Virus record (IMG/VR): IMGVR_UViG_3300021124_000001
DNA length: 64,000 nt
From: a virus
Taxonomy: Duplodnaviria > Caudoviricetes
Strand: one strand, 5' to 3'
How positions within the stretch are numbered: the first letter of the stretch is position 1; the number at the start of each line of letters is the position of its first letter. Positions 1,052-62,387 of the stretch are shown one piece after another. A program made the translations under genes and the position numbers. The notes beneath the pieces are model-generated. The model was not told where the DNA came from, did no database searches, and was given only the letters and a program-made list of their open reading frames with translations.

Positions 1052-1600
1052 CTAGCTGATGTTAGATTTATGTCCTCGTTTTGCGTGTGATAATTTCATA
1101 GCTTCAGACATAGTTTTTTTGTATTTTTCTGTTCTTGGTTTTTGAATTCTAGCTTTTGCCTTTTCAGAAATAGATTTTCTGCCGCTTGCAGTTATTGGTG
1201 ACGGCATAGATTTTAATGTGTTTCGTATTTTATCTTTAGTTTCTTGTGTATGCTTAGTTCCCAATTTTTTATTTCTAAGCATTTCACCGAATTCTATTTT
1301 TATAGAATCGAATAATCTACTATTCATATATCTTTGCTGTTTATCGGTTTTGCCTTTCATTAACATAAAAGCGTGTAACATTTTATAACGATTTGAACCT
1401 GTTGTCATTTTCGTTAACAACAAGTGGCATATAAAATGCTCTCTTGCTGTTAATTTTACTAAATTTTCTTTGGTGTCATTTCCACCAAAAGATTTGGGTA
1501 TTATGTGGTGTCGTTCAAGATATCCTACATTGTTATTTCTTAATTTGGCATTTTTTATTATAGAAAAATACCAGTTTTTATACTTAGAGTTATTAAACAT
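1052..1600 (-). mobile_element. HNH homing endonuclease with NUMOD3-like DNA-binding region, inside the tRNA array
   Basis: ERHHIIPKSFGG...NLVKLTAREHFICH HNH motif, KHTQETKDKI NUMOD3-like motif, very AT-rich, TATAAATA at 1624-1631 (-). Confidence 0.88.
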
Positions 1601-8890: not shown

Positions 8891-9925
8891 ATGAGTATTC
8901 TAGATAAAATTAAAAAGAATAGTAGCATTAAAGATTCTGCTATTCTATCCAAATCCAAATTCTTCACAGATAAGGATATGATTCCAACGGCAGTTCCTGC
9001 CATCAACATTGCTCTCTCAGGTAAACTTGATGGTGGTCTAACTCCAGGTCTTACAATGTGGGCCGGTCCATCAAAACACTTTAAGACAGCATTTTCTTTA
9101 TTGATGGCCAAATCTTACCTGGACAAATATGAAGACGCCGCATTACTTTTTTACGACAGCGAATTTGGAACGCCTCAGTCTTACTTTGATAGTTTCGGTA
9201 TCGATACTGATAGAGTTTTACATACTCCTCTCACTGATATTGAACAATTAAAGTTTGATGTGATGAAACAACTGACCGGATTGGAACGTGGTGAACACCT
9301 CATCATTGTCATTGATTCTATCGGTAACTTGGCATCTAAGAAAGAAGTTGAAGATGCTTTATCTGAGAAGTCTGTGGCCGATATGTCACGAGCAAAACAA
9401 GTCAAGAGTTTGTTCCGTATGGTAACACCACACTTGTCGTTGAAAGATATTCCAATGATTGTTGTGAATCACACATACAAAGAAATTGGCATGTTCCCTA
9501 AAGATATTGTTGGTGGCGGTACAGGTTCATATTACTCTGCTGACAACATTTTCATCTTGGGTCGCCAGCAAGAAAAAGAAGGCACCGAGATTGTCGGTTA
9601 CAATTTTATTATCAACGTAGAAAAGTCTCGTTATGTTAAAGAGAAATCTAAAATACCTGTCTCTGTATCTTTTGACGGTGGCATTAGTAAGTGGTCTGGC
9701 TTACTTGACATTGCCCTTGAATCTGGACACGTTATCAAACCATCAAATGGATGGTATTCTAAAGTGGACAAAACTACTGGTGAAGTAGATGAGAAAAAGT
9801 ATCGCATCAAAGATACTGACACCAAAGAGTTTTGGACTTCTATTGTTGAAGATGAAACGTTCCAACAATACGTATCGGACAAGTATGCCATTGCAACTGG
9901 CGCAATCATGCAGGAAGAAGAATGA
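8891..9925 (+). CDS. uvsX: RecA-like recombinase UvsX
   Basis: AGPSKHFKT, YDSEFG, DSIGNLASKKE. Confidence 0.97.
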   Translation: MSILDKIKKNSSIKDSAILSKSKFFTDKDMIPTAVPAINIALSGKLDGGLTPGLTMWAGPSKHFKTAFSLLMAKSYLDKYEDAALLFYDSEFGTPQSYFDSFGIDTDRVLHTPLTDIEQLKFDVMKQLTGLERGEHLIIVIDSIGNLASKKEVEDALSEKSVADMSRAKQVKSLFRMVTPHLSLKDIPMIVVNHTYKEIGMFPKDIVGGGTGSYYSADNIFILGRQQEKEGTEIVGYNFIINVEKSRYVKEKSKIPVSVSFDGGISKWSGLLDIALESGHVIKPSNGWYSKVDKTTGEVDEKKYRIKDTDTKEFWTSIVEDETFQQYVSDKYAIATGAIMQEEE

Positions 9926-12590: not shown

Positions 12591-13316
12591 ATGAACCCAT
12601 TAGTGACAGTCATTACACCGACTACCGGTGCCCATTATCTCCGTCAAGCTATTCAAAGCGTCAAAGACCAAACATACGACAATATTCAGCATTTAGTTGT
12701 CGTTGACGGAGAACATCCTAGAGCAACTCCTATACTACAGGATTATCCACATCTAGATGTCATTAAACTACCATATTCTACAGGCAAGGATCGTTTTAAC
12801 GGTCACAGAATCTATGGTGCTTCAATTTACCTTGCACGAGGTGAATATGTTTGCTTCTTAGATGAGGACAACTGGTTTGATCCTGAGCATGTAGAATCTT
12901 TGATGAAGGTTATCAACAACAAATTTGCATGGGCTTATTCCTTACGCAAAATTGTTGATTCGGATGGCAAATACGTATGTAATGATGACTGTGAAAGTCT
13001 CGGTAAATGGCCATCAGTACTAAGTGAACAAGATTATTTTGTTGATGTTGGTTGTTTCTTTTTACCAAGAGGTATTGCATTACAAACAAGTCCAATTTGG
13101 TATCGTAAAGCAAGAGAACCAGGTGTTCCTGAAGTGGATAGATACTTGACTGCGGTGTTGAGACAAAATAACTTGACACACCAGACTAATGGCCTATATA
13201 CTCTTAACTATAGAGCCGGCAACACAGGAATATCTGTACAAGCAGATTTCTTTCTTAAAGGTAATGAAGTGATGAAACAAAAATATAATGGAAGTTTGCC
13301 ATGGAAAAAGACCTAA
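12591..13316 (+). CDS. glycosyltransferase family 2
   Basis: VTVITPT, VVVDG, CFLDEDN. Confidence 0.9.
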   Translation: MNPLVTVITPTTGAHYLRQAIQSVKDQTYDNIQHLVVVDGEHPRATPILQDYPHLDVIKLPYSTGKDRFNGHRIYGASIYLARGEYVCFLDEDNWFDPEHVESLMKVINNKFAWAYSLRKIVDSDGKYVCNDDCESLGKWPSVLSEQDYFVDVGCFFLPRGIALQTSPIWYRKAREPGVPEVDRYLTAVLRQNNLTHQTNGLYTLNYRAGNTGISVQADFFLKGNEVMKQKYNGSLPWKKT

Positions 13317-14155
13317 TAATTGGTGCGTTTAAGAACTATAACTTTGAAACAATCAAACCTTGGATTCAATCAATCAATGAATGTGGTTTCAAAGGTGACA
13401 AAGTAATTGTCTCTATTGGTTCTTCAAAAGAGACCAACGATAAAATAGCACAAGCCGGTTTCACCGTAATCAGTGCGCCAAGTCAAGCTCGTATGGGCTT
13501 TCACATGGAGAGATTCTTACACATCTATAACTTCCTTCAAGCACAAGGAATCAATTATCGATATGTAATCACAACTGATGTGCGTGATGTGATCTTTCAA
13601 AAAGACCCAAGTGAATGGATCGAAAAAAACATCGGTGATAACGAGATGATTGCCGTGTCTGAGTCTATCAAAATCAAAAACGAACACTGGAACAGACAAA
13701 ACATCATCAATGCTTTTGGTGGTTACTTCTATGAAGGTGTACAAGACCAAGATGTTTATAATGTAGGAACACTTGCAGGTACATCCACATACATCAAAGA
13801 TTTGTGTGGCATGTTATATCAATTATCTGCTAATCGTCCAGATTGGGTTGCTGACCAAGCCGCATACAACATTCTACTAAACTGGCAACCATACAAAGAC
13901 AAAACCAAATTTGTCGGCCTGTCTGATGGTTGGTCGTGCAACTTACATATCACCCACAAACCCGATGAAAAGGAACATTTCAAGTCTTTCATTCTTCAAC
14001 CTGTTCCGGTGTTTGAAGATGGTGTGGTGCGAGATGGAACAACCGATGAACTTTTCTGTATTGTCCACCAGTATGACCGAGATCCTGTGATGTCGAAATT
14101 CTACAAAGACAAATATAAGGTAGAAGATGTCATCACTTTTAGGACAGACGTATGA
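13301..14155 (+). CDS. putative GT-A-fold glycosyltransferase
   Basis: TTDVRDVIFQ, DQAAYN, IVHQYDR. Confidence 0.65.
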   Translation: MEKDLIIGAFKNYNFETIKPWIQSINECGFKGDKVIVSIGSSKETNDKIAQAGFTVISAPSQARMGFHMERFLHIYNFLQAQGINYRYVITTDVRDVIFQKDPSEWIEKNIGDNEMIAVSESIKIKNEHWNRQNIINAFGGYFYEGVQDQDVYNVGTLAGTSTYIKDLCGMLYQLSANRPDWVADQAAYNILLNWQPYKDKTKFVGLSDGWSCNLHITHKPDEKEHFKSFILQPVPVFEDGVVRDGTTDELFCIVHQYDRDPVMSKFYKDKYKVEDVITFRTDV

Positions 14156-14907
14156 AAATGATTAATGATTTTGATTGGGATTATCTCAGATTTAAATTTG
14201 AGTCTGCCAAACCATTTCACCATGTTGTAATCGATAATTTTTTCAAAGAAGAATTTGCACAGGCCATTGCCCAAGAAATTCCTGGTTATGACGCCGAAGT
14301 GGATGCAAAGTATGACAATGCTATTGAGAAGAAAAGAACAGTACAAAACTGGACCAAATTCTCTAAGAATGTTTACAAAGCAATGTCAGCTTTGGTTGAC
14401 CAAGAATTCACGAGTCTTTTGAGATACATAACTAATCAACCTGATTTGGTTGCAGACTTTGGTCTTCATGGTGGTGGTATGCATTTACATCAATCTGGTG
14501 ACTATTTGAATGTACACTTGGATTATGATGTTCACCCAAAGATGGACATGAAACGTAAATTAAACATCATCATTTATTTGAACCCTGAATGGCAGGCATC
14601 TTGGGGTGGCAACTTAGGTCTTTGGTCGCATGATGAAGAAACGAATCAACCTAAAGAACTAGGATCTTCAATTATTCCAATCTTCAATAGAGCAGTTTTA
14701 TTTGATACGACACAAAACTCTTGGCATGGTGTGACTGAGGGTATCTTTTGTCCTGAAGGCCAGTACAGAAAGAGTCTCGCACTATATTATCTCATTCCAA
14801 CAGAAGACCTAGATAACAAGAGACAGAAAGCATTGTTTGTTCCAAGGAAAGAACAAAAAGGCGATAAAGAAATTGAAAAATTGATTAAGACAAGATCGGG
14901 ATATTGA
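14152..14907 (+). CDS. 2OG-Fe(II) oxygenase
   Basis: PFHHVVIDNF, GGGMH, HLD, WHG, RKS. Confidence 0.9.
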   Translation: MKMINDFDWDYLRFKFESAKPFHHVVIDNFFKEEFAQAIAQEIPGYDAEVDAKYDNAIEKKRTVQNWTKFSKNVYKAMSALVDQEFTSLLRYITNQPDLVADFGLHGGGMHLHQSGDYLNVHLDYDVHPKMDMKRKLNIIIYLNPEWQASWGGNLGLWSHDEETNQPKELGSSIIPIFNRAVLFDTTQNSWHGVTEGIFCPEGQYRKSLALYYLIPTEDLDNKRQKALFVPRKEQKGDKEIEKLIKTRSGY

Positions 14908-14908
14908 T

Positions 14909-15721
14909 ATGGGTAATATTACCATTGTGACTGCATTTTATGACATTGGCCGTGGTGATTGGACACCAGATAAAGGCCTTCCACACTATCTACAAAGAAC
15001 TACAGACACCTACATTGAAAGATTTACACATCTAACTAAACTAGATAATGAAATTGTTGTAGTGACAACGCCAGACATTGGTAAAAGACTAAAAGAAATT
15101 AGTGATAAGGTTAAAATTGTCGAATATGATCCTTTCAATGCCTTTTCAACACACCTCAGTAAAATCATTACTATCCAAGAAGGTGTATCTTACAAACAAA
15201 TGATTCATCCGAGTCAAGTAAGAAACCCCGAATATTGGAGCCAAAAATATGTTTTAGTGAATCTCTTAAAATCACACTTTGTTAATTTGGCAATCAATCA
15301 AGGTTTGGTTACTAACGATTTGGTTGCATGGTTGGACTTTGGTTACTGTAGGGATGAAAATACACTTCCAAAAAGTCTTACTTGGTCTTATGATTTTGAT
15401 GCAACTAAGATTCATTTGTTTGCTTACAAAGATTTGAATCCAAAAATAACACTACAACAAATTATATCCACAAACGATGTTCATATCTTAGGTGCAAAAA
15501 TTGTAGCACATAAGAAACTATGGCCAGTCATGGAAAGTAAGATGTTTAATTCTTTTGATTTGTTGTACATGAACGGACTAATGGATGATGACCAAACTAT
15601 GATGTTGATTTGTGCTACAGAAAATCCTGATCTATTTGAGCAACACAGAATACCGGATCACCAGCTAGGACTTGATCCTTTTGTCATTTTTAAAAACTTC
15701 AATAATGCGGAGAAACTATGA
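14909..15721 (+). CDS. HtrL/YibB (WlaTC)-family glycosyltransferase-like protein
   Basis: TIVTAFYDIGRGDW, WLDFG, DDDQT. Confidence 0.8.
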   Translation: MGNITIVTAFYDIGRGDWTPDKGLPHYLQRTTDTYIERFTHLTKLDNEIVVVTTPDIGKRLKEISDKVKIVEYDPFNAFSTHLSKIITIQEGVSYKQMIHPSQVRNPEYWSQKYVLVNLLKSHFVNLAINQGLVTNDLVAWLDFGYCRDENTLPKSLTWSYDFDATKIHLFAYKDLNPKITLQQIISTNDVHILGAKIVAHKKLWPVMESKMFNSFDLLYMNGLMDDDQTMMLICATENPDLFEQHRIPDHQLGLDPFVIFKNFNNAEKL

Positions 15722-16278
15722 GCGATACTATTACATTTAACACCGCCACGCAACAATTTTACGGCATGAAAAAGAGTTCAGGCCATGGTTTAGGTGAACT
15801 TGTTAAAACTATGAACGAACCTTTTGTTGTTGAAATTGGATGTTCCGAGGGTGACACAACAGAATGGCTACTACAGTGTAATCCAGGTTTGAAGATTGTC
15901 TCTATCGACCCATACGCAAACTATTTGGATTGGAATGGTAACTACCTGAATGATCGTCAAGAGTTTTATGAAAAAACTATGCGCCGGTTGGCTCCTTATG
16001 GTGACCGGTTTGAAATGATTAGAGACTATTCTGATAATGTTCACGGTGAGTTCGAGGACAACTCCCTAGACCTGTTATTCATCGATGGATTACACACATA
16101 TGAACAAGTTCTGATTGACTGTTTTAACTATTATTCCAAGGTTAAGCCTGGAGGCGTATTCTCAGGTCATGATTTCAGAGTTATTCCTGGTGTGAACAAA
16201 GCCGTGAAAGAATTTGCTTCCTCAGTCGGTAAAGAGATTCTGGAAACAGAATGTGATGTCTGGTATTGGTACAAATAA
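15718..16278 (+). CDS. class I SAM methyltransferase (Methyltransf_24-like)
   Basis: VEIG, LFIDGLHTYE, KPGG..GHD. Confidence 0.9.
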   Translation: MSDTITFNTATQQFYGMKKSSGHGLGELVKTMNEPFVVEIGCSEGDTTEWLLQCNPGLKIVSIDPYANYLDWNGNYLNDRQEFYEKTMRRLAPYGDRFEMIRDYSDNVHGEFEDNSLDLLFIDGLHTYEQVLIDCFNYYSKVKPGGVFSGHDFRVIPGVNKAVKEFASSVGKEILETECDVWYWYK

Positions 16279-39183: not shown

Positions 39184-39396
39184 ATGAGTAATGTGATAAT
39201 GTCATATCAGTTAAATGGTAGACGCACCGAAGTATTACAAGAACACAATGGAATGTACCGTGTTGAGTTTTATGTCAATGGTCGTTTGTCTCATGTAACT
39301 AACGCATTTAACTTTGACGAGGCTCAACGCCTTGCTGAGAATTATGTGGAAGTGGCCGGTCAGAATAAACCTGGTCCTGCCTTCTTGCAAGAATGA
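39184..39396 (+). CDS. hypothetical protein
   Basis: AGGAG RBS. Confidence 0.75.
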   Translation: MSNVIMSYQLNGRRTEVLQEHNGMYRVEFYVNGRLSHVTNAFNFDEAQRLAENYVEVAGQNKPGPAFLQE

Positions 39397-40208
39397 TGAA
39401 CGTTCTAATCACCGGTGATTCTGGTTATATTGGTAGTCATCTCAAACAGATGATTATCAAAACCGGAAAACAATATAATGTGCAATGCTTGAATTTGAGT
39501 AATGCAGATGTTGAAGTGCCAGCCACATTATTCAAAGCCGGCTTTGGTGATGTTAAGTGGGATACAGTCATTCATTTGGCCGCTTTAGTTAAAGTTGGAG
39601 AATCTGTGGATAATCCATCTAACTATTTTGAGACAAATGTGAATGGTACAATAAATGTACTTCGATATTTGAATTATGAAAATTTTATATTTGCATCGAC
39701 AGGAGCTGCCGCTAACCCTAATAGTCCATATGGGCTATCAAAGTTAATGGCAGAAAATGTCGTGTTTGAATTTGCTAACAAAAAACCTATTGACTTTACA
39801 ATCTTTAGATTCTATAATGTAATTGGTCAAGATGGATTTGAACCAACTAATCCAGACGGGCTATTTTATAACTTGAAAAAGGCGGTACAAACAAAACAGT
39901 TTGATTTATATGGTACAGATTACGATACCAAAGATGGTACCTGTATACGAGAGTATGTGCATGTAAACGATATTTGTTGGGCAATCATTCGAGCAATCGA
40001 GAAACCAGCATATAGTATTGAGAACCTGGCCTACGGTGACACCAGAACAGTCCGTGAGATTATCGACACTTTTAAGATGACAAACTCAGTAGACTTTGAA
40101 GTAATTGAGAAACCGAGAAGACCAGGCGATCTTGAGGCATGTTACTTGCCCAACCCATCAAAGTATATGGTGCGTGATTACACCTATGAACAAATGCTGA
40201 TGATTTGA
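39393..40208 (+). CDS. galE: NAD-dependent epimerase, UDP-glucose 4-epimerase-like
   Basis: TGDSGYIGSH, HLAA, YGLSK, DGTCIREYVHV, RRPGD. Confidence 0.88.
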   Translation: MMNVLITGDSGYIGSHLKQMIIKTGKQYNVQCLNLSNADVEVPATLFKAGFGDVKWDTVIHLAALVKVGESVDNPSNYFETNVNGTINVLRYLNYENFIFASTGAAANPNSPYGLSKLMAENVVFEFANKKPIDFTIFRFYNVIGQDGFEPTNPDGLFYNLKKAVQTKQFDLYGTDYDTKDGTCIREYVHVNDICWAIIRAIEKPAYSIENLAYGDTRTVREIIDTFKMTNSVDFEVIEKPRRPGDLEACYLPNPSKYMVRDYTYEQMLMI

Positions 40209-47462: not shown

Positions 47463-47999
47463 GTGATGTCTAATGTATTCAATACTGGTGTTAATCCAGT
47501 CCATTCTGGTATTTACGTGGTCGACCGCGGTGAGAAACTAGGTACACCGTTGCGTTGGTTCGATGCCGACACTGGTGAATGGTCTCGTTGTGAATATACA
47601 ATGGAAGATGTTATTAATGCCAAGGGTAAACCATCGGCACTTGGATTCTTGCCCTGGCGCGGTCCTGTCAAGGTAGCAAAACCAAAACCAGCCGCTGAGG
47701 TTGCATTGGTTAATGATGTACACGTTACAAATACCAATAACCCAGTCGATTTTCCCAAGACTAAAGCCAAACCAGTCAAGGTTGCTAAAGTAAAAGCACC
47801 AAAAGCTGTTAAGGTAGCAAAATCAACTGGTACTAAAGCCACACACCCTGACGGTACTATTATCTTCCGTGCAGACCGTAACAAATACATGGCATGGTTT
47901 GGCGGTAAGCCAGTTGCGGCGCGACCAACTATCGAATCGGCTAAGAATTTTCTAATTAAGAAAGGTATTACTGCCGAAAATATCAATGTAATTGCATAA
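47463..47999 (+). CDS. two-domain early protein with K/A/V/P-rich linker
   Basis: GAGGT RBS, histone-like VKVAK repeats. Confidence 0.8.
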   Translation: MMSNVFNTGVNPVHSGIYVVDRGEKLGTPLRWFDADTGEWSRCEYTMEDVINAKGKPSALGFLPWRGPVKVAKPKPAAEVALVNDVHVTNTNNPVDFPKTKAKPVKVAKVKAPKAVKVAKSTGTKATHPDGTIIFRADRNKYMAWFGGKPVAARPTIESAKNFLIKKGITAENINVIA

Positions 48000-48063: not shown

Positions 48064-48501
48064 ATGAAATATGTATATATTACGGCCGAGTTTAATAAAA
48101 AAATGTGTGAGATTTTTGAAGTTGATTATACGCCGACAGATACAACAAGATTTTTACTAAACAAAACCGAATCCATAATGCCTGTTAACATTGGTATTGA
48201 TATTGGTGTATTTGGTAAAGACCCATGGAACAAAGGTAAAAATACTGGACCATTATCAGAATCACACAGAAAATCATTATCATTGGCGGCAAAAAATTAT
48301 AAGAGAACACCAGAGCATCAAGAAAATAATAGAATCGCAAGGTCAGATTCTTGGTCAGTAACTAATCCAAAAGGTGAAACATTTACTATAAAAAGTATGA
48401 ATCATTTTTGTAAATGTAATCAATTAAATGCAGGACATATGACCTTGGTATCTCAAGGTAAAAGAAAACAACATAAAGGATGGACTTGTTCCAAAATATA
48501 A
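48064..48501 (+). CDS. NUMOD-type DNA-binding protein (homing-endonuclease derivative)
   Basis: PWNKGK, SESHRKSLS, KRKQHKGWTC; no nuclease motif seen. Confidence 0.7.
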   Translation: MKYVYITAEFNKKMCEIFEVDYTPTDTTRFLLNKTESIMPVNIGIDIGVFGKDPWNKGKNTGPLSESHRKSLSLAAKNYKRTPEHQENNRIARSDSWSVTNPKGETFTIKSMNHFCKCNQLNAGHMTLVSQGKRKQHKGWTCSKI

Positions 48502-48698
48502 TGAACGAACGAATTAAAGAACTTGCTAAACAAGCAACTGTTCATGGCGATACTGAGCATCACCTGGACATACCGTTATGGTACTTGGAGCAGTTCGCCA
48601 AGTTGATTGTGAAAGAATGTACCAATATTGTGTTACACTATACTGATGTTGATGAAGGTGTAGCAGTGGCCAAGAAACATTTCGGAGTTGAAGAATGA
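48501..48698 (+). CDS. MNERI/KFAELIV/HFGVEE family member 1
   Basis: All three constant blocks. Confidence 0.85.
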   Translation: MNERIKELAKQATVHGDTEHHLDIPLWYLEQFAKLIVKECTNIVLHYTDVDEGVAVAKKHFGVEE

Positions 48699-49563: not shown

Positions 49564-50142
49564 ATGTTTGTCTTTGATGTTGAAACACTTGGTAAGGAAT
49601 CTAGTGCAGTGATATTATCCATGGCGGCCGTATACTTTGACCCGAGGGAAAAACCATCACCAAAAGATATGCGAGACACCGCATTTTTTGCCAAATTCAA
49701 TGTCAATGACCAAATTGCAAGGCTTGGTCGCACCATGACCAGGTCATCCATATCATGGTGGGGTAAACAATGTGACATTGTAAAAAACAAATCATTTAAA
49801 CCAAGCGCCGATGATATTATCATTGATGATGGTGTAGAAGCCATGAGACAATGGTCAAAACAATTTCCAATGCACGACAAATGTTGGGTGTGGGCACGTG
49901 GCAACCTCGACCAATTGGTGCTTGATTCGATTGAAGAAAAACTAGGCATTGAACCTGTGTTTTTCTTTAATCGTTGGCGTGATGTGCGTACCGCATTGGA
50001 CCTATTGAATGGGTCTGTGACTGGTTATGTGGATGTGGATTATCCTGGTTTCAATCCTGCACATCATATACAAAAACATGACCCAATTGATGATTGCATT
50101 TTTGACGCCATGCAGTTACTATACGGAAAGAATGTAGAATGA
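49564..50142 (+). CDS. DEDDh 3'-5' exonuclease, DexA-like
   Basis: FDVET, WARG..D, RDVRT, H.PIDD. Confidence 0.85.
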   Translation: MFVFDVETLGKESSAVILSMAAVYFDPREKPSPKDMRDTAFFAKFNVNDQIARLGRTMTRSSISWWGKQCDIVKNKSFKPSADDIIIDDGVEAMRQWSKQFPMHDKCWVWARGNLDQLVLDSIEEKLGIEPVFFFNRWRDVRTALDLLNGSVTGYVDVDYPGFNPAHHIQKHDPIDDCIFDAMQLLYGKNVE

Positions 50143-50360
50143 ACGAACGAATTGAACAAATTATTGAACAGGCATATTGCGATTTACATAAACAGGATCC
50201 AAATAGATTTTTTGGTGAAAGAACTATTGCTAAAAAAGTAGCCGAGTTGATTGTCCAAGATTGTGCCAATTTTGTGCGTGAAACATATGACCACGAGGCG
50301 GCAGAATCTATCGCATGGACAATGGAGATTAATTATGGTTTACACGGAGATTATGCATGA
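50139..50360 (+). CDS. MNERI/KFAELIV family member 2 (divergent C-terminus)
   Basis: MNERIEQ, KVAELIVQDC. Confidence 0.8.
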   Translation: MNERIEQIIEQAYCDLHKQDPNRFFGERTIAKKVAELIVQDCANFVRETYDHEAAESIAWTMEINYGLHGDYA

Positions 50361-51416: not shown

Positions 51417-51827
51417 ATGACCAGCACTAATATGTATATACCCCAGTCGGAATGGGATGCAATGTCCCAAGCATTATCTACCATATTCGATGTAGATTAT
51501 GTACCAAGTAACACCGAACCTTATATTGTAACCCCATTATATTCTAATAATTCTGGACATTTCAATCTAGGCATAAAAAGAACGGCCGAACAAAAAAAAG
51601 CTCAAAGTACTAGACAAATAGGAATGAGATATTCCCATTTACGCAATGAAAAAATTGGATTTGCAAATTCTAAAAATTGGTTAATCACTGATCCTATCGG
51701 TATCACATATAGAGTTTTTAATTTAAGGCAATTTTGTCGAGAAAAAAACTTAAATCAATCTAGTATGACTATGGTAGCCAAAGGCAAATTTAAACAACAC
51801 AAGGGTTGGACCTGTCAGAAAATTTGA
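51417..51827 (+). CDS. NUMOD-type DNA-binding protein (paralog of 48064)
   Basis: NLRQFC, KGKFKQHKGWTC; TATAAATA at 51344. Confidence 0.7.
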   Translation: MTSTNMYIPQSEWDAMSQALSTIFDVDYVPSNTEPYIVTPLYSNNSGHFNLGIKRTAEQKKAQSTRQIGMRYSHLRNEKIGFANSKNWLITDPIGITYRVFNLRQFCREKNLNQSSMTMVAKGKFKQHKGWTCQKI

Positions 51828-51828
51828 T

Positions 51829-51890
51829 TGTTGTTTTTAAGCAACACCGTCCCGGATTGTCCTTGACTTAGGTGCCGGCCGTGTTACAAT
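51829..51890 (+). promoter_or_regulatory. palindrome plus sigma70 promoter
   Basis: TGTTG-N8-CAACA 51829-51846; TTGACT at 51863 ... TACAAT. Confidence 0.8.
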
Positions 51891-53279: not shown

Positions 53280-53504
53280 ATGAATGAAAAAATTCAAAAA
53301 CTAATGGGTAAGGCTCTAGATAGCGAAATGCGGCGAACCTGGGATACCATGACTTACGGAGACCTATTACAGTTTAGTGAAAAGTTCGCCGAGTTGATTG
53401 TTCGGGAATGTATGTATGTAGGTCGCTTATCTCAGATTAACAACGGCCTTGTTGATTCAGATATCAAAGACCATTTTTACGGAGTTGAAGATGAACGAGA
53501 CTGA
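53280..53504 (+). CDS. family member 3
   Basis: MNEKI, EKFAELIVREC, HFYGVE. Confidence 0.85.
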   Translation: MNEKIQKLMGKALDSEMRRTWDTMTYGDLLQFSEKFAELIVRECMYVGRLSQINNGLVDSDIKDHFYGVEDERD

Positions 53505-53586
53505 AATTAAATTACTAATCGTCGGCACCATTATGCTTGGAGCAGGCATGATGTGGTTGGGCAATATCTTAGGGAGATTAGCATGA
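53491..53586 (+). CDS. 31-aa membrane peptide (cargo)
   Basis: MNETEIKLLIVGTIMLGAGMMWLG...; starts at the GGAG junction. Confidence 0.65.
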   Translation: MNETEIKLLIVGTIMLGAGMMWLGNILGRLA

Positions 53587-53828
53587 GCAAAAGAATGAGA
53601 GAACTTGCCGAACAGGCTGGATTTCAATACATTAAAGATGAAGGCATTGGCTGGGCTGGAAATTACAATGACAGTTTACCCAAGTTCGCCGAGTTGATTG
53701 TTCGGGAATGTATCGGATGTTGTGAACAAGTTATTAGTGATCCTGTTCCTAACTATATTGACACTTGGTTAAATGGTGGTTCGCAATGTATTGACGAAAT
53801 TAAACAACATTTCGGAGTTGAACGATGA
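53583..53828 (+). CDS. family member 4
   Basis: RMRELAEQAG, KFAELIVREC, HFGVER. Confidence 0.85.
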   Translation: MSKRMRELAEQAGFQYIKDEGIGWAGNYNDSLPKFAELIVRECIGCCEQVISDPVPNYIDTWLNGGSQCIDEIKQHFGVER

Positions 53829-54052
53829 AAGTCATTATTGAAAAACCGGATGGATCACCATATCTCACAGTAAGTGATGATAGACTAATGGTGTCTGTTC
53901 AAATGCACGATTGTGTGTGGATAGGTGAGCCAGTAAAGATTCACTTTGACCGCAGAACCATACCAGCACTGATTGATGCGTTAAGCAGATTGAATCGTGG
54001 CGAACTTGACACAACCATTCGCACACACCACTTTAACCAGGATATAGAATGA
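53825..54052 (+). CDS. unrelated cargo ORF
   Basis: ATGA overlaps at both ends. Confidence 0.75.
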   Translation: MKVIIEKPDGSPYLTVSDDRLMVSVQMHDCVWIGEPVKIHFDRRTIPALIDALSRLNRGELDTTIRTHHFNQDIE

Positions 54053-54285
54053 AAAAGATACCAATGTTAGAACGGTTCGCCGCACAAAGTCTTGTTGAAC
54101 ACGATGGTGAGTTGATATTCAGCAAAGAAAAGTTCGCCGAGTTGATTGTGCGTGATACATTAGACCAAGTTGCTGAATTTAGTCGTCTAACAAAGGCATA
54201 TCAAACACAAGGCATTGATCCCGAGATTGATGTTACCCGAGAAGTTTTGAAAAACTATGGGTTTACAAGATTTCCCAGGAGTTGA
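54049..54285 (+). CDS. family member 5
   Basis: EKFAELIVR; followed by GGAGTTGAAGAATGA out of frame. Confidence 0.8.
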   Translation: MKKIPMLERFAAQSLVEHDGELIFSKEKFAELIVRDTLDQVAEFSRLTKAYQTQGIDPEIDVTREVLKNYGFTRFPRS

Positions 54286-54288
54286 AGA

Positions 54289-54516
54289 ATGAACGAACGA
54301 ATTCGAGAACTTGCCGAACAGTCCAGAGAAAAGAAATATGATTACGGTGCTAGAGAAGGTGAAAGTCATTACATTTATGTATTCAATGAAGAAAAGTTCG
54401 CCGAGTTGATTGTCAAGGAATGTCAAACTCGTGTAGAACAATATATCTGTGATTGCGGCGAGATTGGTTCATTGCCTGATGCTGTGATTATGAAACATTT
54501 CGGAGTTGAAGAATGA
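54289..54516 (+). CDS. family member 6
   Basis: All three blocks. Confidence 0.88.
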   Translation: MNERIRELAEQSREKKYDYGAREGESHYIYVFNEEKFAELIVKECQTRVEQYICDCGEIGSLPDAVIMKHFGVEE

Positions 54517-54785
54517 TTGATTACTTCCAAGCACTTAAAGAAATGCACCAGGGCAATGTGGTCAAATATGTGGGCACAGTAAATGGTAATGTGATGAGCG
54601 ATAATGGTGCCAGTTTTTGTATGTGTCGTGGTTGTATCTTTCGATTCGACGATGGAGTAATCAAGTGGAACAAGTTGGGATATATGGTTTACGATCCAGA
54701 CTACCGTTATGAACTAACAGGTGAAACTGTGGATCCAAGGGCATGGAAACCAGAAGAGACAAAAAAGCAAAAGGATAAAGAATGA
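54513..54785 (+). CDS. unrelated cargo ORF
   Basis: ATGA overlaps at both ends. Confidence 0.75.
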   Translation: MIDYFQALKEMHQGNVVKYVGTVNGNVMSDNGASFCMCRGCIFRFDDGVIKWNKLGYMVYDPDYRYELTGETVDPRAWKPEETKKQKDKE

Positions 54786-55186
54786 AAGACGATGATGTAA
54801 GAAAAGAGATTAGGCGTATAATGGAAAATCGTAAACACTATTCAAACACAAATAACCCTATTGATTTTCCAAAAATACAGGCAGGCGCTGATATCCATGC
54901 AGGTGATGGTGGTTATAGTATAGGCACACAAGAAAAGTATGAGGAGTTCGCTAAGGCTCGCAATAAGTCATTAGCCAACGCAAGAATTAGAGAACTTGCT
55001 GAACAGGCTGGATCAACCCATAAACAAAATCTCGGAGTATATCAATTTTATACAGATGAATTGGAAAAGTTCGCCGAGTTGATTGTTCAGGAATGTATCG
55101 AGGTCGTGGGAGACTGTTCCGATCAATTTGCTACACGGTCGCAGATTACTGAAGAAATTAAAGAACATTTCGGAGTTGAAGAATGA
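54782..55186 (+). CDS. family member 7, fused to a ~65-aa N-terminal extension
   Basis: Internal NARIRELAEQAG, EKFAELIVQEC, HFGVEE. Confidence 0.85.
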   Translation: MKDDDVRKEIRRIMENRKHYSNTNNPIDFPKIQAGADIHAGDGGYSIGTQEKYEEFAKARNKSLANARIRELAEQAGSTHKQNLGVYQFYTDELEKFAELIVQECIEVVGDCSDQFATRSQITEEIKEHFGVEE

Positions 55187-55590
55187 AATCATATAATGCA
55201 GTAAACGATTTACACATGGCCATGGCTCACGCTATTTACGAGGGCTTTCCTGAATATGAATACGAAAGCCGTGATTTCAACAACCCGGATAGAAATGCCC
55301 GAGTGGTTAAAAAAACACGCCACACCGAATACAATCTAACAGTCAAGGCCATGTTTCCTCAAGTCTGGAGTTCAACTGCGCTGGGCTTTGGTGGCATTGG
55401 TGGACAGGCTATTACTACCGCATATACCACGGTGGTAGAAAGCGACATTGACTCAAGTTGTTGTGTGTATTTTGGTGGACAATTTGCTTACCGTATTGAA
55501 CGACCTAATACTCAATTCTTTGAGGACCTGTCCAAACAACAAATGACCAAGGTGTCGGAAGCAAAGAAAAGATATGAACGAACGAATTGA
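55183..55590 (+). CDS. unrelated cargo ORF
   Basis: FPQ.WSSTALGFGGIGGQAIT. Confidence 0.8.
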   Translation: MKSYNAVNDLHMAMAHAIYEGFPEYEYESRDFNNPDRNARVVKKTRHTEYNLTVKAMFPQVWSSTALGFGGIGGQAITTAYTTVVESDIDSSCCVYFGGQFAYRIERPNTQFFEDLSKQQMTKVSEAKKRYERTN

Positions 55591-55867
55591 AAAACTTGTC
55601 GAACAGGCTACTATTAAAACTTCTCATCGGTATATTACTTGGGGAAATACGGTTGCTACTCAGTCCGAAGAAGTCTTTGACAAGGAAAAGTTCGCCGAGT
55701 TGATTGTTCGGGAATGTGCTAAAATTTGTATTGAACAGAATGTATCCAACCTTGATTTAGATGTTATTCGTGAGTCTGGCAAATTTACTTTACAGGATCT
55801 TGCTACCAAATCGTGTGGTGAGAATTTGTCTAAACAGATTAGGAAACATTTCGGAGTTGAAGAATGA
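55574..55867 (+). CDS. family member 8
   Basis: All three blocks, longer inserts. Confidence 0.88.
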   Translation: MNERIEKLVEQATIKTSHRYITWGNTVATQSEEVFDKEKFAELIVRECAKICIEQNVSNLDLDVIRESGKFTLQDLATKSCGENLSKQIRKHFGVEE

Positions 55868-55959
55868 ACTATTTTATTGTTGGGCTGGTCATTGGACTTA
55901 TTCCAGGTATGTGTGTAGCGGCTAATTATCATTACAAAAAATGGAGAAATTCTAAATGA
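55864..55959 (+). CDS. 31-aa membrane peptide (cargo)
   Basis: MNYFIVGLVIGLIPGMCVAANY...; ATGA overlaps at both ends. Confidence 0.65.
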   Translation: MNYFIVGLVIGLIPGMCVAANYHYKKWRNSK

Positions 55960-56186
55960 ACGAACTAATCAATAACTTAAGGCTTGATGCTGGAATAGCA
56001 CAACTCAAAGATGATCCACGATTAGTGGTAATTGATCGTGAAGGCAATGTGATTGATCCATTGATTGGGTTAGAAAAGTTCGCTGAGTTGCTTGTTCGAG
56101 AATGTGCTAATATTGCCACGATAAATCAATATCAATCCTACACTCCTGGTCATTATATTTTGAATCATTTCGGAGTTGAAGAATGA
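55956..56186 (+). CDS. family member 9
   Basis: MNELI, EKFAELLVREC, HFGVEE. Confidence 0.85.
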   Translation: MNELINNLRLDAGIAQLKDDPRLVVIDREGNVIDPLIGLEKFAELLVRECANIATINQYQSYTPGHYILNHFGVEE

Positions 56187-56308
56187 ACGAAGACGAACGA
56201 GCAGGTTGGTGGGCTGTTGTATGCCTATTGATGGTTGGTGCGGCCGCCTACTTTACGATTTTTATGATCGTTTTCAGTTTGTTAAAACATTTTTTCGGAG
56301 TTGAATGA
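56183..56308 (+). CDS. 41-aa TM peptide framed by the family's first and last blocks
   Basis: MNEDER-[TM]-KHFFGVE. Confidence 0.7.
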   Translation: MNEDERAGWWAVVCLLMVGAAAYFTIFMIVFSLLKHFFGVE

Positions 56309-56454
56309 TGGACGCATTTGATTTTATATGGAATGCAGACCAAGAATCCAAAATCAATCAACTTGAAAAACGTATTGAACAGTTGGAAAAACAGAATGAA
56401 GTCCTATGTGAATGTATTTTATATTTCAAACAAAAATTAGGAGTTGAAGAATGA
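56305..56454 (+). CDS. 49-aa coiled-coil peptide ending in the junction block
   Basis: ...KQKLGVEE*. Confidence 0.7.
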   Translation: MMDAFDFIWNADQESKINQLEKRIEQLEKQNEVLCECILYFKQKLGVEE

Positions 56455-56918
56455 AACCTAAATTGTATATGTTAATTGGTGTACCCGGTTCTGGTAAGAC
56501 CACATGGATTTCCAAACAAGAATGGGCCAAAGATTGTTGTATCGTATCAACCGACAAATATGTTGAAGAATATGCCATGATGCAGGGCAAAACATATTCT
56601 GAAGTATTCCAAGAGTTTATGCCCACGGCTGTAGAGTTGATGACTGATAATGTTAGACTCGCAAGGGAAGATAACCAAGATGTTATTTGGGATCAAACCT
56701 CAACCACAGTATCAACCAGACGGAAAAAGTTTGCATTGTTGCCTGACCATTATGCCATTGCAGTAGTATTCCGTACACCGAGCCGTGATGAATTGGATGT
56801 CCGACTATCTGGACGCCCAGGCAAACACATTCCTAAAGAAGTGGTTGATTCTATGATTGCAAAGTGGGAAGAACCAACCGAAGATGAGGGCTTCAGTGAA
56901 ATTTGGTACGTCAATTAA
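56451..56918 (+). CDS. P-loop kinase (polynucleotide-kinase/AAA_33-like)
   Basis: GVPGSGKTT, STD, DQT, R...R, IP..V. Confidence 0.88.
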   Translation: MKPKLYMLIGVPGSGKTTWISKQEWAKDCCIVSTDKYVEEYAMMQGKTYSEVFQEFMPTAVELMTDNVRLAREDNQDVIWDQTSTTVSTRRKKFALLPDHYAIAVVFRTPSRDELDVRLSGRPGKHIPKEVVDSMIAKWEEPTEDEGFSEIWYVN

Positions 56919-56975
56919 GCCCTTGACAAATGCCACAAAGTGGTATACAATGGTCACACAAACTAAGGAGTTCCA

Positions 56976-59030: not shown

Positions 59031-59252
59031 ATGAAAGAACGTATTAAAGAAATTGCGTTGCAGGCTGGTGGTAGCCATTACCCTGATGTTGGTGGCGATC
59101 TATTACAGAAGTTTGCAGACCTATTGATTGATGAATGTATTAGAGCAATACAAGAAACACCTAATCATCATTGCTACACTAGTTTTGATATTGCACAATC
59201 TGATGGTACTAAGGCTGAATGTATTGAACACATTAAAAAAATTCTAATGTAA
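59031..59252 (+). CDS. divergent family member 10
   Basis: MKERIKEIALQAG, QKFADLLIDEC; DNA blocks diverged. Confidence 0.75.
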   Translation: MKERIKEIALQAGGSHYPDVGGDLLQKFADLLIDECIRAIQETPNHHCYTSFDIAQSDGTKAECIEHIKKILM

Positions 59253-61971: not shown

Positions 61972-62190
61972 ATGAACGAACGAATTAAAGAACTTGCTAT
62001 AGAGGCTGGGATGATTGTAGGTGAGGCAAATGGATTTGACATGACACGGTTGATGCCCAGAGAAGTAAAGTTCGCCGAGTTGATTGTGAAGGAATGTGTG
62101 GGCATTTACAACAAACTTGATAATGGTAATCAACATCTTGGCACTGACGATTACTTGGAAGCATTACAAAAACATTTCGGAGTAAAGTAA
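61972..62190 (+). CDS. family member 11
   Basis: MNERIKELA, KFAELIVKEC (exact 20-mer at 62068), HFGVK. Confidence 0.88.
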   Translation: MNERIKELAIEAGMIVGEANGFDMTRLMPREVKFAELIVKECVGIYNKLDNGNQHLGTDDYLEALQKHFGVK

Positions 62191-62387
62191 TGAATGCCGA
62201 ACGAGTTACAAACAAGAGATTAAACCGTAATGGATGGTACTGGGCAGTAAAGTTTGCTGACCCAGCGGATGCTGATGACCTAATCGCAACTTTGCCATTG
62301 GGCACAAAAGGATACTACCGGGCCAAGGGGCATACTGCTCGACCACATTGGGTTTTAGTTAAAAATACTTTCGGAGTTGAAGAATGA
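62190..62387 (+). CDS. cargo ORF ending in the junction block
   Basis: ...NTFGVEE*, TTTCGGAGTTGAAGAATGA. Confidence 0.75.
   Translation: MNAERVTNKRLNRNGWYWAVKFADPADADDLIATLPLGTKGYYRAKGHTARPHWVLVKNTFGVEE

Follow-up and report, generated by a model that had tools for sequence, protein, structure and literature searches.

Constant coding blocks as likely in-frame joints for module exchange in a phage mini-gene array

Introduction

How does a run of neighboring phage genes come to share three near-constant blocks of coding sequence when nothing alignable lies between them? This question is raised by IMG/VR virus record IMGVR_UViG_3300021124_000001, of which we analyzed a stretch of 64,000 nucleotides (nt), hereafter referred to as the window; the contig from which it comes is 169 kb long and belongs to a large uncultured freshwater phage. 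At positions 53280-56186, the window contains an array of seven related mini-genes interleaved with unrelated small open reading frames (ORFs). A first-pass annotation had proposed that the constant blocks of these mini-genes act as recombination joints, through which variable segments and cargo genes are swapped between phages in an integron- or shufflon-like manner, and had offered a small scaffold protein displaying variable parts as an alternative. Our analysis indicates that the array is likely a multi-copy system whose constant blocks serve as in-frame homology tracts for module swapping. Phage mosaicism usually exchanges genes or larger modules, whereas the pieces concerned here are 30-160 nt long and lie inside a mini-gene.

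Architecture of the mini-gene family

Eleven family paralogs were identified in the window, all of them plus-strand ORFs of 65-134 amino acids (aa) spread over 48.5-62.2 kb. Alignment of the 11 members revealed a common layout consisting of block A (MNERI.ELAEQA), a first variable segment (variable 1), block B (EKFAELIVREC), a second variable segment (variable 2), and block C (KHFGVEE followed by the stop codon). A profile built from these members and used to scan all six frames of the window returned exactly the same 11 ORFs, with E-values of 1e-15 to 1e-29, and the next-best match had an E-value of 0.036. The seven paralogs and four outlying members listed by the first-pass annotation are all real plus-strand ORFs that align at the three blocks. 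Variable 1 and variable 2 were unalignable among the 11 members, and no common repeats were found outside the blocks in the variable segments inside the window, in agreement with the annotated lack of evident similarity.

The members, referred to below by their start positions, are located in the array at 53280-53504 (74 aa), 53583-53828 (81 aa), 54049-54285 (78 aa), 54289-54516 (75 aa), 54782-55186 (134 aa), 55574-55867 (97 aa), and 55956-56186 (76 aa), and outside it at 48501-48698 (65 aa), 50139-50360 (73 aa), 59031-59252 (73 aa), and 61972-62190 (72 aa). Some copies carry degenerate blocks, as had been noted before. In member 54049, blocks A and C are degenerate and the junction motif lies in another frame, and in member 53280 the junction is 1 base shorter, which places the stop 4 codons later. 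Member 50139 has a diverged block B and no block C, member 54782 is extended at its N-terminus by 64 residues, its block A lying at 54974, and member 59031 is the most diverged of the 11. The members alternate with cargo ORFs, and the junctions between them are nearly all ATGA overlaps or overlaps of a few bases, which bears out the earlier description of nearly complete translational coupling.

Reassortment of modules across phage contigs

The comparison across phages was based on 583 profile hits in 198 loci, which yielded 391 unique complete members. Two members were counted as having a common variable 1 at nucleotide identity of at least 85% over at least 80% of its length. Among 72 pairs with a common variable 1, variable 2 was also common in 3; conversely, variable 1 was also common in 3 of the 51 pairs with a common variable 2. 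A single variable 1 module was combined with up to five variable 2 classes. The A-B and B-C segments, which had been suggested as potential units of exchange, thus reassort independently. Similarity collapsed at block B; the median distance from its first base was +21 nt for pairs with a common variable 1 and +3.5 nt for pairs with a common variable 2, and the crossover points were spread over ~35 nt. The outer borders behaved in the same way: the flank upstream of a common variable 1 differed in 66 of 71 pairs, the flank downstream of a common variable 2 differed in 44 of 49, and block A was not co-inherited with variable 1. Each variable segment is a unit of its own, bordered by two joints.

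Matches to the window itself likewise begin or end at block edges. The B-variable 2-C module of member 53583 was found in five other contigs (81-89% identical), the match running from 53682, where block B begins, to ~53829. In contig L004, the N-terminal half of member 54049 is matched up to 54149, where block B ends, and block A plus variable 1 of member 54289 matches contig L189 (88% identical) from the junction at 54277 to 54423, where the adjoining variable 2 is unrelated. DNA similarity of the cargo gene at 54513 to five contigs begins at 54485-54502, within the upstream block C, and the neighbors of this gene differ in each of the five. Variable 2 of member 48501 showed 85-88% nucleotide identity to members in contigs L120 and L121, whose variable 1 is unrelated; variable 1 of member 55574 recurs with 100% identity in contig L035 beside an unrelated variable 2; and the variable 1 module of member 54782 is paired with at least five different variable 2 modules elsewhere. 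A 10.9-kb contig from Trout Bog Lake was 99.96% identical to the window and had the same gene order, and a 1.3-kb Trout Bog contig (L200), from a population variant, was 99.9% identical downstream of 54129 and unrelated upstream, so that the C-terminal half of member 54049 is kept and its N-terminal half is different, with the switch at 54129/54130 in block B. Positions 1-270 of L200 (sample 3300021136) contain a different upstream family member and the chimeric form of member 54049. Independent reassortment, breakpoints within blocks, the switch in L200, and the five neighborhoods of cargo gene 54513 together support the proposal that the constant blocks are recombination joints.

A rival account would be that the members are ordinary, gradually diverging tandem paralogs whose blocks are kept by the needs of the protein, and that the mosaics are assembly chimeras formed at short repeats. 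The comparative data all come from assemblies, and short contigs such as L200 and L201 stop or change sequence at this point, as is typical of assembly-graph branching at a repeat; L201 begins 6 nt before block B, which suggests that the assembly graph branches there. However, the common modules are mostly 85-99% and not 100% identical and occur in 89 loci from many samples, contigs of >100 kb included. This argues against assembly chimeras and indicates that the modules diverged after exchange, and the exchanges appear to be older evolutionary events rather than assembly artefacts. Gradual divergence also predicts the opposite of what was observed, as pairs sharing one half almost never share the other, and it does not account for the rare codons fixed at silent sites of the blocks, which are described below. 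We consider this explanation extremely unlikely and already largely refuted.

The common modules contained 254 silent versus 108 amino-acid-changing codon differences, which rules out hypermutation of the variable segments. Judged by these counts, the modules are under purifying selection and represent conserved building blocks rather than hypermutated loops.

A further module was observed in the N-terminal extension of member 54782. It spans ~120 nt at 54879-54999 (peptide AGADIHAGDGGYS...) and also occurs at 4001-4116 of contig L205 and 4001-4068 of contig L204. Similar DNA occurs in MW202796, a circular myovirus of 44 kb from Manatee Spring (82% identity), and in Limnohabitans phage DC31 (81% identity). 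Because the module makes up the N-terminal end of a P-loop kinase-like protein in DC31, and is followed in MW202796 directly by blocks A and C without block B, modules cross the borders of the family.

Conservation of the blocks as DNA

Block B (AAGTTCGCCGAGTTGATTGT) has 10 matches in the window at up to 3 mismatches, seven of them exact 20-mers, against a chance expectation of 0. The junction at block C (TTCGGAGTTGAAGAATG) likewise has 10 matches, compared with 0.27 expected; three of these copies end ORFs outside the family (56183-56308, 56305-56454, and 62190-62387), and the terminal copy in member 54049 has a shifted reading frame. In the junction, GGAG is followed by a spacer of 7 nt and by the ATG of the following gene, and block C is therefore largely a ribosome-binding site combined with a stop/start overlap. 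The exact block B 20-mer was also found in >119 IMG/VR contigs, with sizes of 4 to 355 kb.

Codon usage in block B was examined in 182 members from loci retrieved with a degenerate peptide pattern, and thus not chosen by their codons. AAG was used in 89% of members, TTC in 82%, GCC in 81%, GAG in 83%, TTG in 86%, and ATT in 92%, compared with background shares of 38, 37, 22, 26, 24, and 48%, respectively. The wobble base of the adjacent Val codon was free, and the flanking Glu codons were GAA. Block A also showed conservation at silent sites, weaker than that of block B. The block consensus was universal in contigs of 34-53% G+C, with no genome-specific variants, and copies within a contig were no more alike than copies from different contigs. 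The blocks therefore obey one consensus across the whole phage population, which may mean either that the pool is well mixed by exchange or that the exact sequence is under direct selection.

The second of these options corresponds to a rival explanation, in which the exact blocks are conserved because they act directly as DNA or RNA, for example as a site bound by a host or phage factor, as a signal for RNA processing or translation, or as the target of a nuclease, and recombination is a by-product. The single consensus over such a range of base composition speaks for it. Blocks B and C also share the core TTCG(CC)GAGTTGA, of which the copy in C clearly works as ribosome-binding site and start, and two nearby ORFs (48064-48501 and 51417-51827) have DNA-binding regions of the homing-endonuclease type. 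Against this, pairing between blocks A and B, whether in RNA or single-stranded DNA, was no better than in shuffled sequences (-13.1 versus a shuffled mean of -11.4 kcal/mol, inside the shuffled range), and block variants break the pairs without compensatory changes. The minimum-energy folds of the 11 genes were inconsistent, and no Rfam match was found at E ≤0.1. An overlapping-frame gene was not supported either: across variable 1, the +1 frame was open in 167 of 391 members, whereas codon shuffles predicted ~137, and the +2 frame was open in 12. In addition, block B is not palindromic and is without promoter-like features. We regard a direct function as the cause of conservation as unlikely, and consider it more plausible that the silent-site conservation is maintained by or for exchange at the blocks.

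Recombination mechanism

No integrase, resolvase, or reverse transcriptase was found with Pfam and PHROG among the ~50 window ORFs scanned, which belong to 64 kb of the 169-kb contig; the first-pass annotation had reported no integrase or reverse transcriptase. All 10 copies of block B and all 10 copies of the junction lie on the plus strand and are thus direct repeats. Recurrent inverted repeats or palindromes were not found at the junctions, and the junction GGAGTTGAAGAATGA is not self-complementary.

These features bear on whether a dedicated site-specific system, with a recombinase or nuclease that recognizes the blocks as in integrons or shufflons, operates at this locus. The cassette-like array with its constant junction and the very wide conservation of the 20-mer would suit such a system. 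It would, however, leave unexplained why only direct repeats on one strand occur, why crossovers are spread over ~35 nt with no fixed position, and why three different blocks act as joints, and none of the enzymes searched for was detected among the ~50 scanned ORFs. We judge a dedicated system very improbable, and the integron- or shufflon-like character originally assigned to the array is not upheld.

General homologous recombination at short in-frame homology tracts fits these observations, given the lack of such enzymes among the scanned ORFs, the direct repeats without palindromes, and the spread of the crossovers. The window encodes a UvsX-like recombinase at 8891-9925 (plus strand; phrog_97, E 1e-90), and the phage also carries other T4-type replication and recombination genes, namely those for a family B polymerase (PolB), a DnaB-like helicase, a primase, a ribonucleotide reductase, and T4 RNase H. 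Three large phage records that contain the family also encode a UvsX-like gene. The UvsX-like enzyme is the obvious candidate and presumably the recombinase of this phage; of the earlier suggestion of a UvsX-driven engine, the gene is confirmed and its involvement is plausible.

Extent and novelty of the family

A profile search of 1.84 billion representative proteins returned 8,167 clusters (at 50% identity) at E ≤0.001 and 974 at E ≤1e-10, and individual phage records carry 3 to 12 or more copies. No model in Pfam, PHROG, or NCBIfam matches the family. The cultured and deposited phages of INPHARED gave no close match at the DNA level, and tblastn against them found nothing even with an E-value limit of 5; the distant DNA matches were restricted to the N-terminal extension module of member 54782. 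We found no paper in the literature that contains the peptide motifs of the family.

Protein structure and possible role

An AlphaFold2 model of member 54289, based on 115 homologs, reached a predicted local distance difference test (pLDDT) score of 86 and a predicted template modeling (pTM) score of 0.72. In this model, block A is a helix (residues 3-11), variable 1 is a beta-hairpin (13-32), and block B together with the start of variable 2 makes up a long helix (34-55), which a loop separates from the short helix of block C (66-71). A homodimer model scored 0.51, whereas the best of three controls scored 0.01; in a benchmark, a score of 0.51 was reached by 20 of 30 proteins solved as one-chain pairs and by 1 of 23 solved as single chains. 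Across the homodimer runs, at least 58% of contacts agreed and pLDDT was at least 72. The modeled interface is formed by residues of blocks A, B, and C, with helix B packed on helix B and Cys45 opposite Cys45. Family-wide, the median net charge is -5, the median length is 76 aa, and the block B cysteine is kept in 89%. The protein is thus probably a small acidic symmetric dimer with the constant blocks as its interface. Fold matches in BFVD and the ESM Atlas were limited to uncharacterized phage proteins of the same family.

These models also lend support to the scaffold with displayed variable parts that the first-pass annotation had offered as an alternative, and such a scaffold is compatible with recombination joints in its constant parts. 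As to the role of the protein, the members might be binders of host factors or host defences that are made early from host-type promoters. This is a guess drawn from the architecture and gene context and nothing else, to which we give somewhat less than even chances; the host may belong to the freshwater Betaproteobacteria.

Cargo genes, promoters, and neighborhood

All cargo genes lie on the plus strand. Three of them, at 53491-53586 (31 aa), 55864-55959 (31 aa), and 56183-56308 (41 aa), encode tiny hydrophobic peptides that are probably membrane-spanning. The first has homologs in five other arrays and the third a related peptide in contig L107; overall, homologs of these peptides occupy similar array positions in eight loci (L172, L061, L019, L106, L124, L107, L084, and L014). 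The remaining cargo consists of a 75-aa ORF at 53825-54052, which has no family match and whose homolog in L014 has other neighbors, the 90-aa ORF at 54513-54785 with homologs in the five contigs mentioned above, a 135-aa ORF at 55183-55590 without a family match, a 49-aa ORF at 56305-56454, and, beyond the array, a 65-aa ORF at 62190-62387. The last two, like the 41-aa peptide, end in the block C junction. The array closes with an AAA_33 P-loop kinase-like (polynucleotide-kinase-like) gene at 56451-56918 (plus strand); because homologs with 50-64% identity are found near family arrays in 12 other loci, this gene is a fairly stable neighbor. The motif NT(N/G)NP(I/V)DFPK recurs in otherwise unrelated ORFs (47463-47999 and 54782-55186 of the window, and 14555-14845 of L014) and may be another small common module or joint.

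A sigma-70-like promoter was predicted by consensus match at 51863-51890 (plus strand), upstream of the operon that contains the 53.3-56.9 kb array, and the next strong plus-strand match to this consensus lies at 56923. Because these matches bracket the array and the consensus scan revealed no strong promoter within it, the array looks like one polycistronic unit.

The ORFs at 48064-48501 and 51417-51827 (plus strand) are paralogous, and their C-terminal regions match only the DNA-binding part of phrog_2081 and phrog_314, which are homing or HNH endonuclease families. No catalytic endonuclease domain was detected in either, and the first ends exactly at the start of member 48501. They could be remnants of free-standing homing endonucleases, or else small DNA-binding proteins; that they cut near the blocks would be pure speculation. 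Elsewhere in the window, an ORF at 1052-1600 (minus strand) gave a weak match to the HNH endonuclease motif PF01844, with an E-value of 2e-4 that lies slightly above the cut-off. The replication module includes a sugar or modification cluster at 12591-16278, composed of a family 2 glycosyltransferase, a 2OG-Fe(II) oxygenase, an HtrL/YibB-like protein, and a methyltransferase, and an NAD-dependent epimerase is encoded at 39393-40208.

A model of in-frame module exchange and its implications

We propose the following model. The protein would be a scaffold of an N-terminal helix (A), a long central helix (B), and a short C-terminal helix (C), probably as a symmetric dimer, into which two interchangeable inserts are set, a beta-hairpin (variable 1) and a helix end with a loop (variable 2). 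The blocks, as near-identical DNA across many phages, would serve as short in-frame homology tracts, and block C in addition contains the stop codon, the ribosome-binding site, and the first bases of the gene that follows. Homologous recombination at the blocks, presumably by the T4-type UvsX machinery in the phage of the window, would then swap variable 1, variable 2, and whole neighboring mini-genes independently, both between paralogs and between co-infecting phages. All recombinants would remain in frame and translationally coupled, and the outcome would be a combinatorial repertoire drawn from a common module pool.

Several points weigh against this model. All mosaics come from assembled metagenome contigs, and one near-identical relative (L199) has exactly the same gene order as the window. 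At 20-40 nt, the homology tracts are short for UvsX-type exchange to be efficient, as judged from T4 genetics. The conservation at silent sites could reflect a DNA or RNA function instead of recombination. Because copies of the blocks within a contig are no more alike than those between contigs, there is no sign of local gene conversion. For the protein, the dimer is the product of a model alone; a Foldseek search against the PDB gave nothing at E ≤0.001, and the best VIA-align Z score was 4.8, which is inside the noise. Even so, we consider in-frame exchange at the blocks the likely explanation of the array.

A wider version of the model is conceivable, in which the family is a natural combinatorial library. 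The blocks would be selected as the core of a mini-binder dimer and, at their silent sites, as universal joints, so that freshwater phage populations would draw on a common pool of thousands of short binding modules and keep re-dealing them as host targets, for example defence systems, change; mixed dimers of paralogs are conceivable as well. We hold this version to be possible but doubtful. If true, it would amount to the generation of a population-level repertoire without a dedicated enzyme.

The joints are conserved down to silent bases among phages that differ greatly in size and G+C content. If recombination is the reason why the blocks are kept, they would represent a clean and widespread case of selection for evolvability. 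Moreover, a family of ~8,000 clusters absent from Pfam, PHROGs, and NCBIfam is a sizeable piece of viral dark matter, for which an architecture and a structural model are now available. A small scaffold, dimeric in our model, with two inserts that can be exchanged freely could also be of interest in protein engineering.

Comparison with known systems

In the modular theory of phage evolution, short conserved linker or boundary sequences of lambdoid phages at module borders favor homologous exchange between otherwise unrelated segments, and the blocks described here resemble them in this respect. The lambdoid modules are, however, of kilobase size with joints between genes, whereas those of the family measure 30-160 nt and are joined in frame inside a mini-gene. 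Shufflons, such as that of plasmid R64 with its Rci recombinase and sfx sites, also use short repeats within coding sequence to give alternative protein ends. They invert DNA between inverted repeats by means of a dedicated tyrosine recombinase, whereas the repeats of the family are all direct and no such enzyme was found among the scanned ORFs.

Integrons share with the family arrays of small, promoter-less, co-oriented, and varied genes separated by a recurring junction. In contrast to integrons, the array has no IntI integrase among the scanned ORFs, no attI, and no palindromic attC; its junctions are 14-17-nt ribosome-binding-site and start motifs, and exchange points also lie inside genes. 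A diversity-generating retroelement would be marked by a reverse transcriptase and by template and variable repeats that differ at adenines; no reverse transcriptase was detected in the same scan, and the variable segments are unalignable modules under purifying selection, not point variants.

Promoter-early stem-loop (PeSL) cassettes of T4-type phages are closer, as their repeats in hyperplastic regions shuffle small non-essential genes by homologous recombination, and the resulting mini-circles have been shown physically (Arbiol et al. 2010, PMC2839356; Comeau et al. 2014, PMC4122927). As in the family, related genomes differ by insertion, deletion, or replacement at the conserved repeats. 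PeSLs are intergenic, however, and consist of a sigma-70 promoter and a terminator stem-loop, while the joints of the family lie inside coding sequence or in stop/start overlaps, with no strong promoter or terminator at the junctions within 53.3-56.9 kb, and they also shuffle pieces smaller than a gene.

The closest working analogy is provided by the gp38 tail-fibre adhesins of T-even phages, in which glycine-rich motifs (GRMs) separate hypervariable segments (Trojet et al. 2011, PMC3157838; Tetart et al. 1998 cited there). In both cases, conserved motifs within the coding sequence form a structural core that divides the hypervariable segments, and exchange in or next to these motifs yields chimeras. 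The family nevertheless differs from gp38 in several ways. No sequence or fold relation was found in Pfam, PHROG, or fold searches; the family proteins are 57-144 aa long, have only two variable slots, and are encoded in multi-copy arrays behind host-type promoters, whereas gp38 is a single virion gene. In addition, gp38 binds receptors. The family genes sit among small genes and not among virion genes, and their terminal block carries a ribosome-binding site and the next start, so that shuffling extends to whole genes. Exchange at conserved motifs is thus known already from gp38 adhesins (PMC3157838) and PeSL cassettes (PMC2839356). The present case differs in that the joints are in frame inside a mini-gene, that the units of exchange are smaller than a gene, that the last joint doubles as a translation-coupling signal, and that all of this takes place in a family whose members and fold had not been described.

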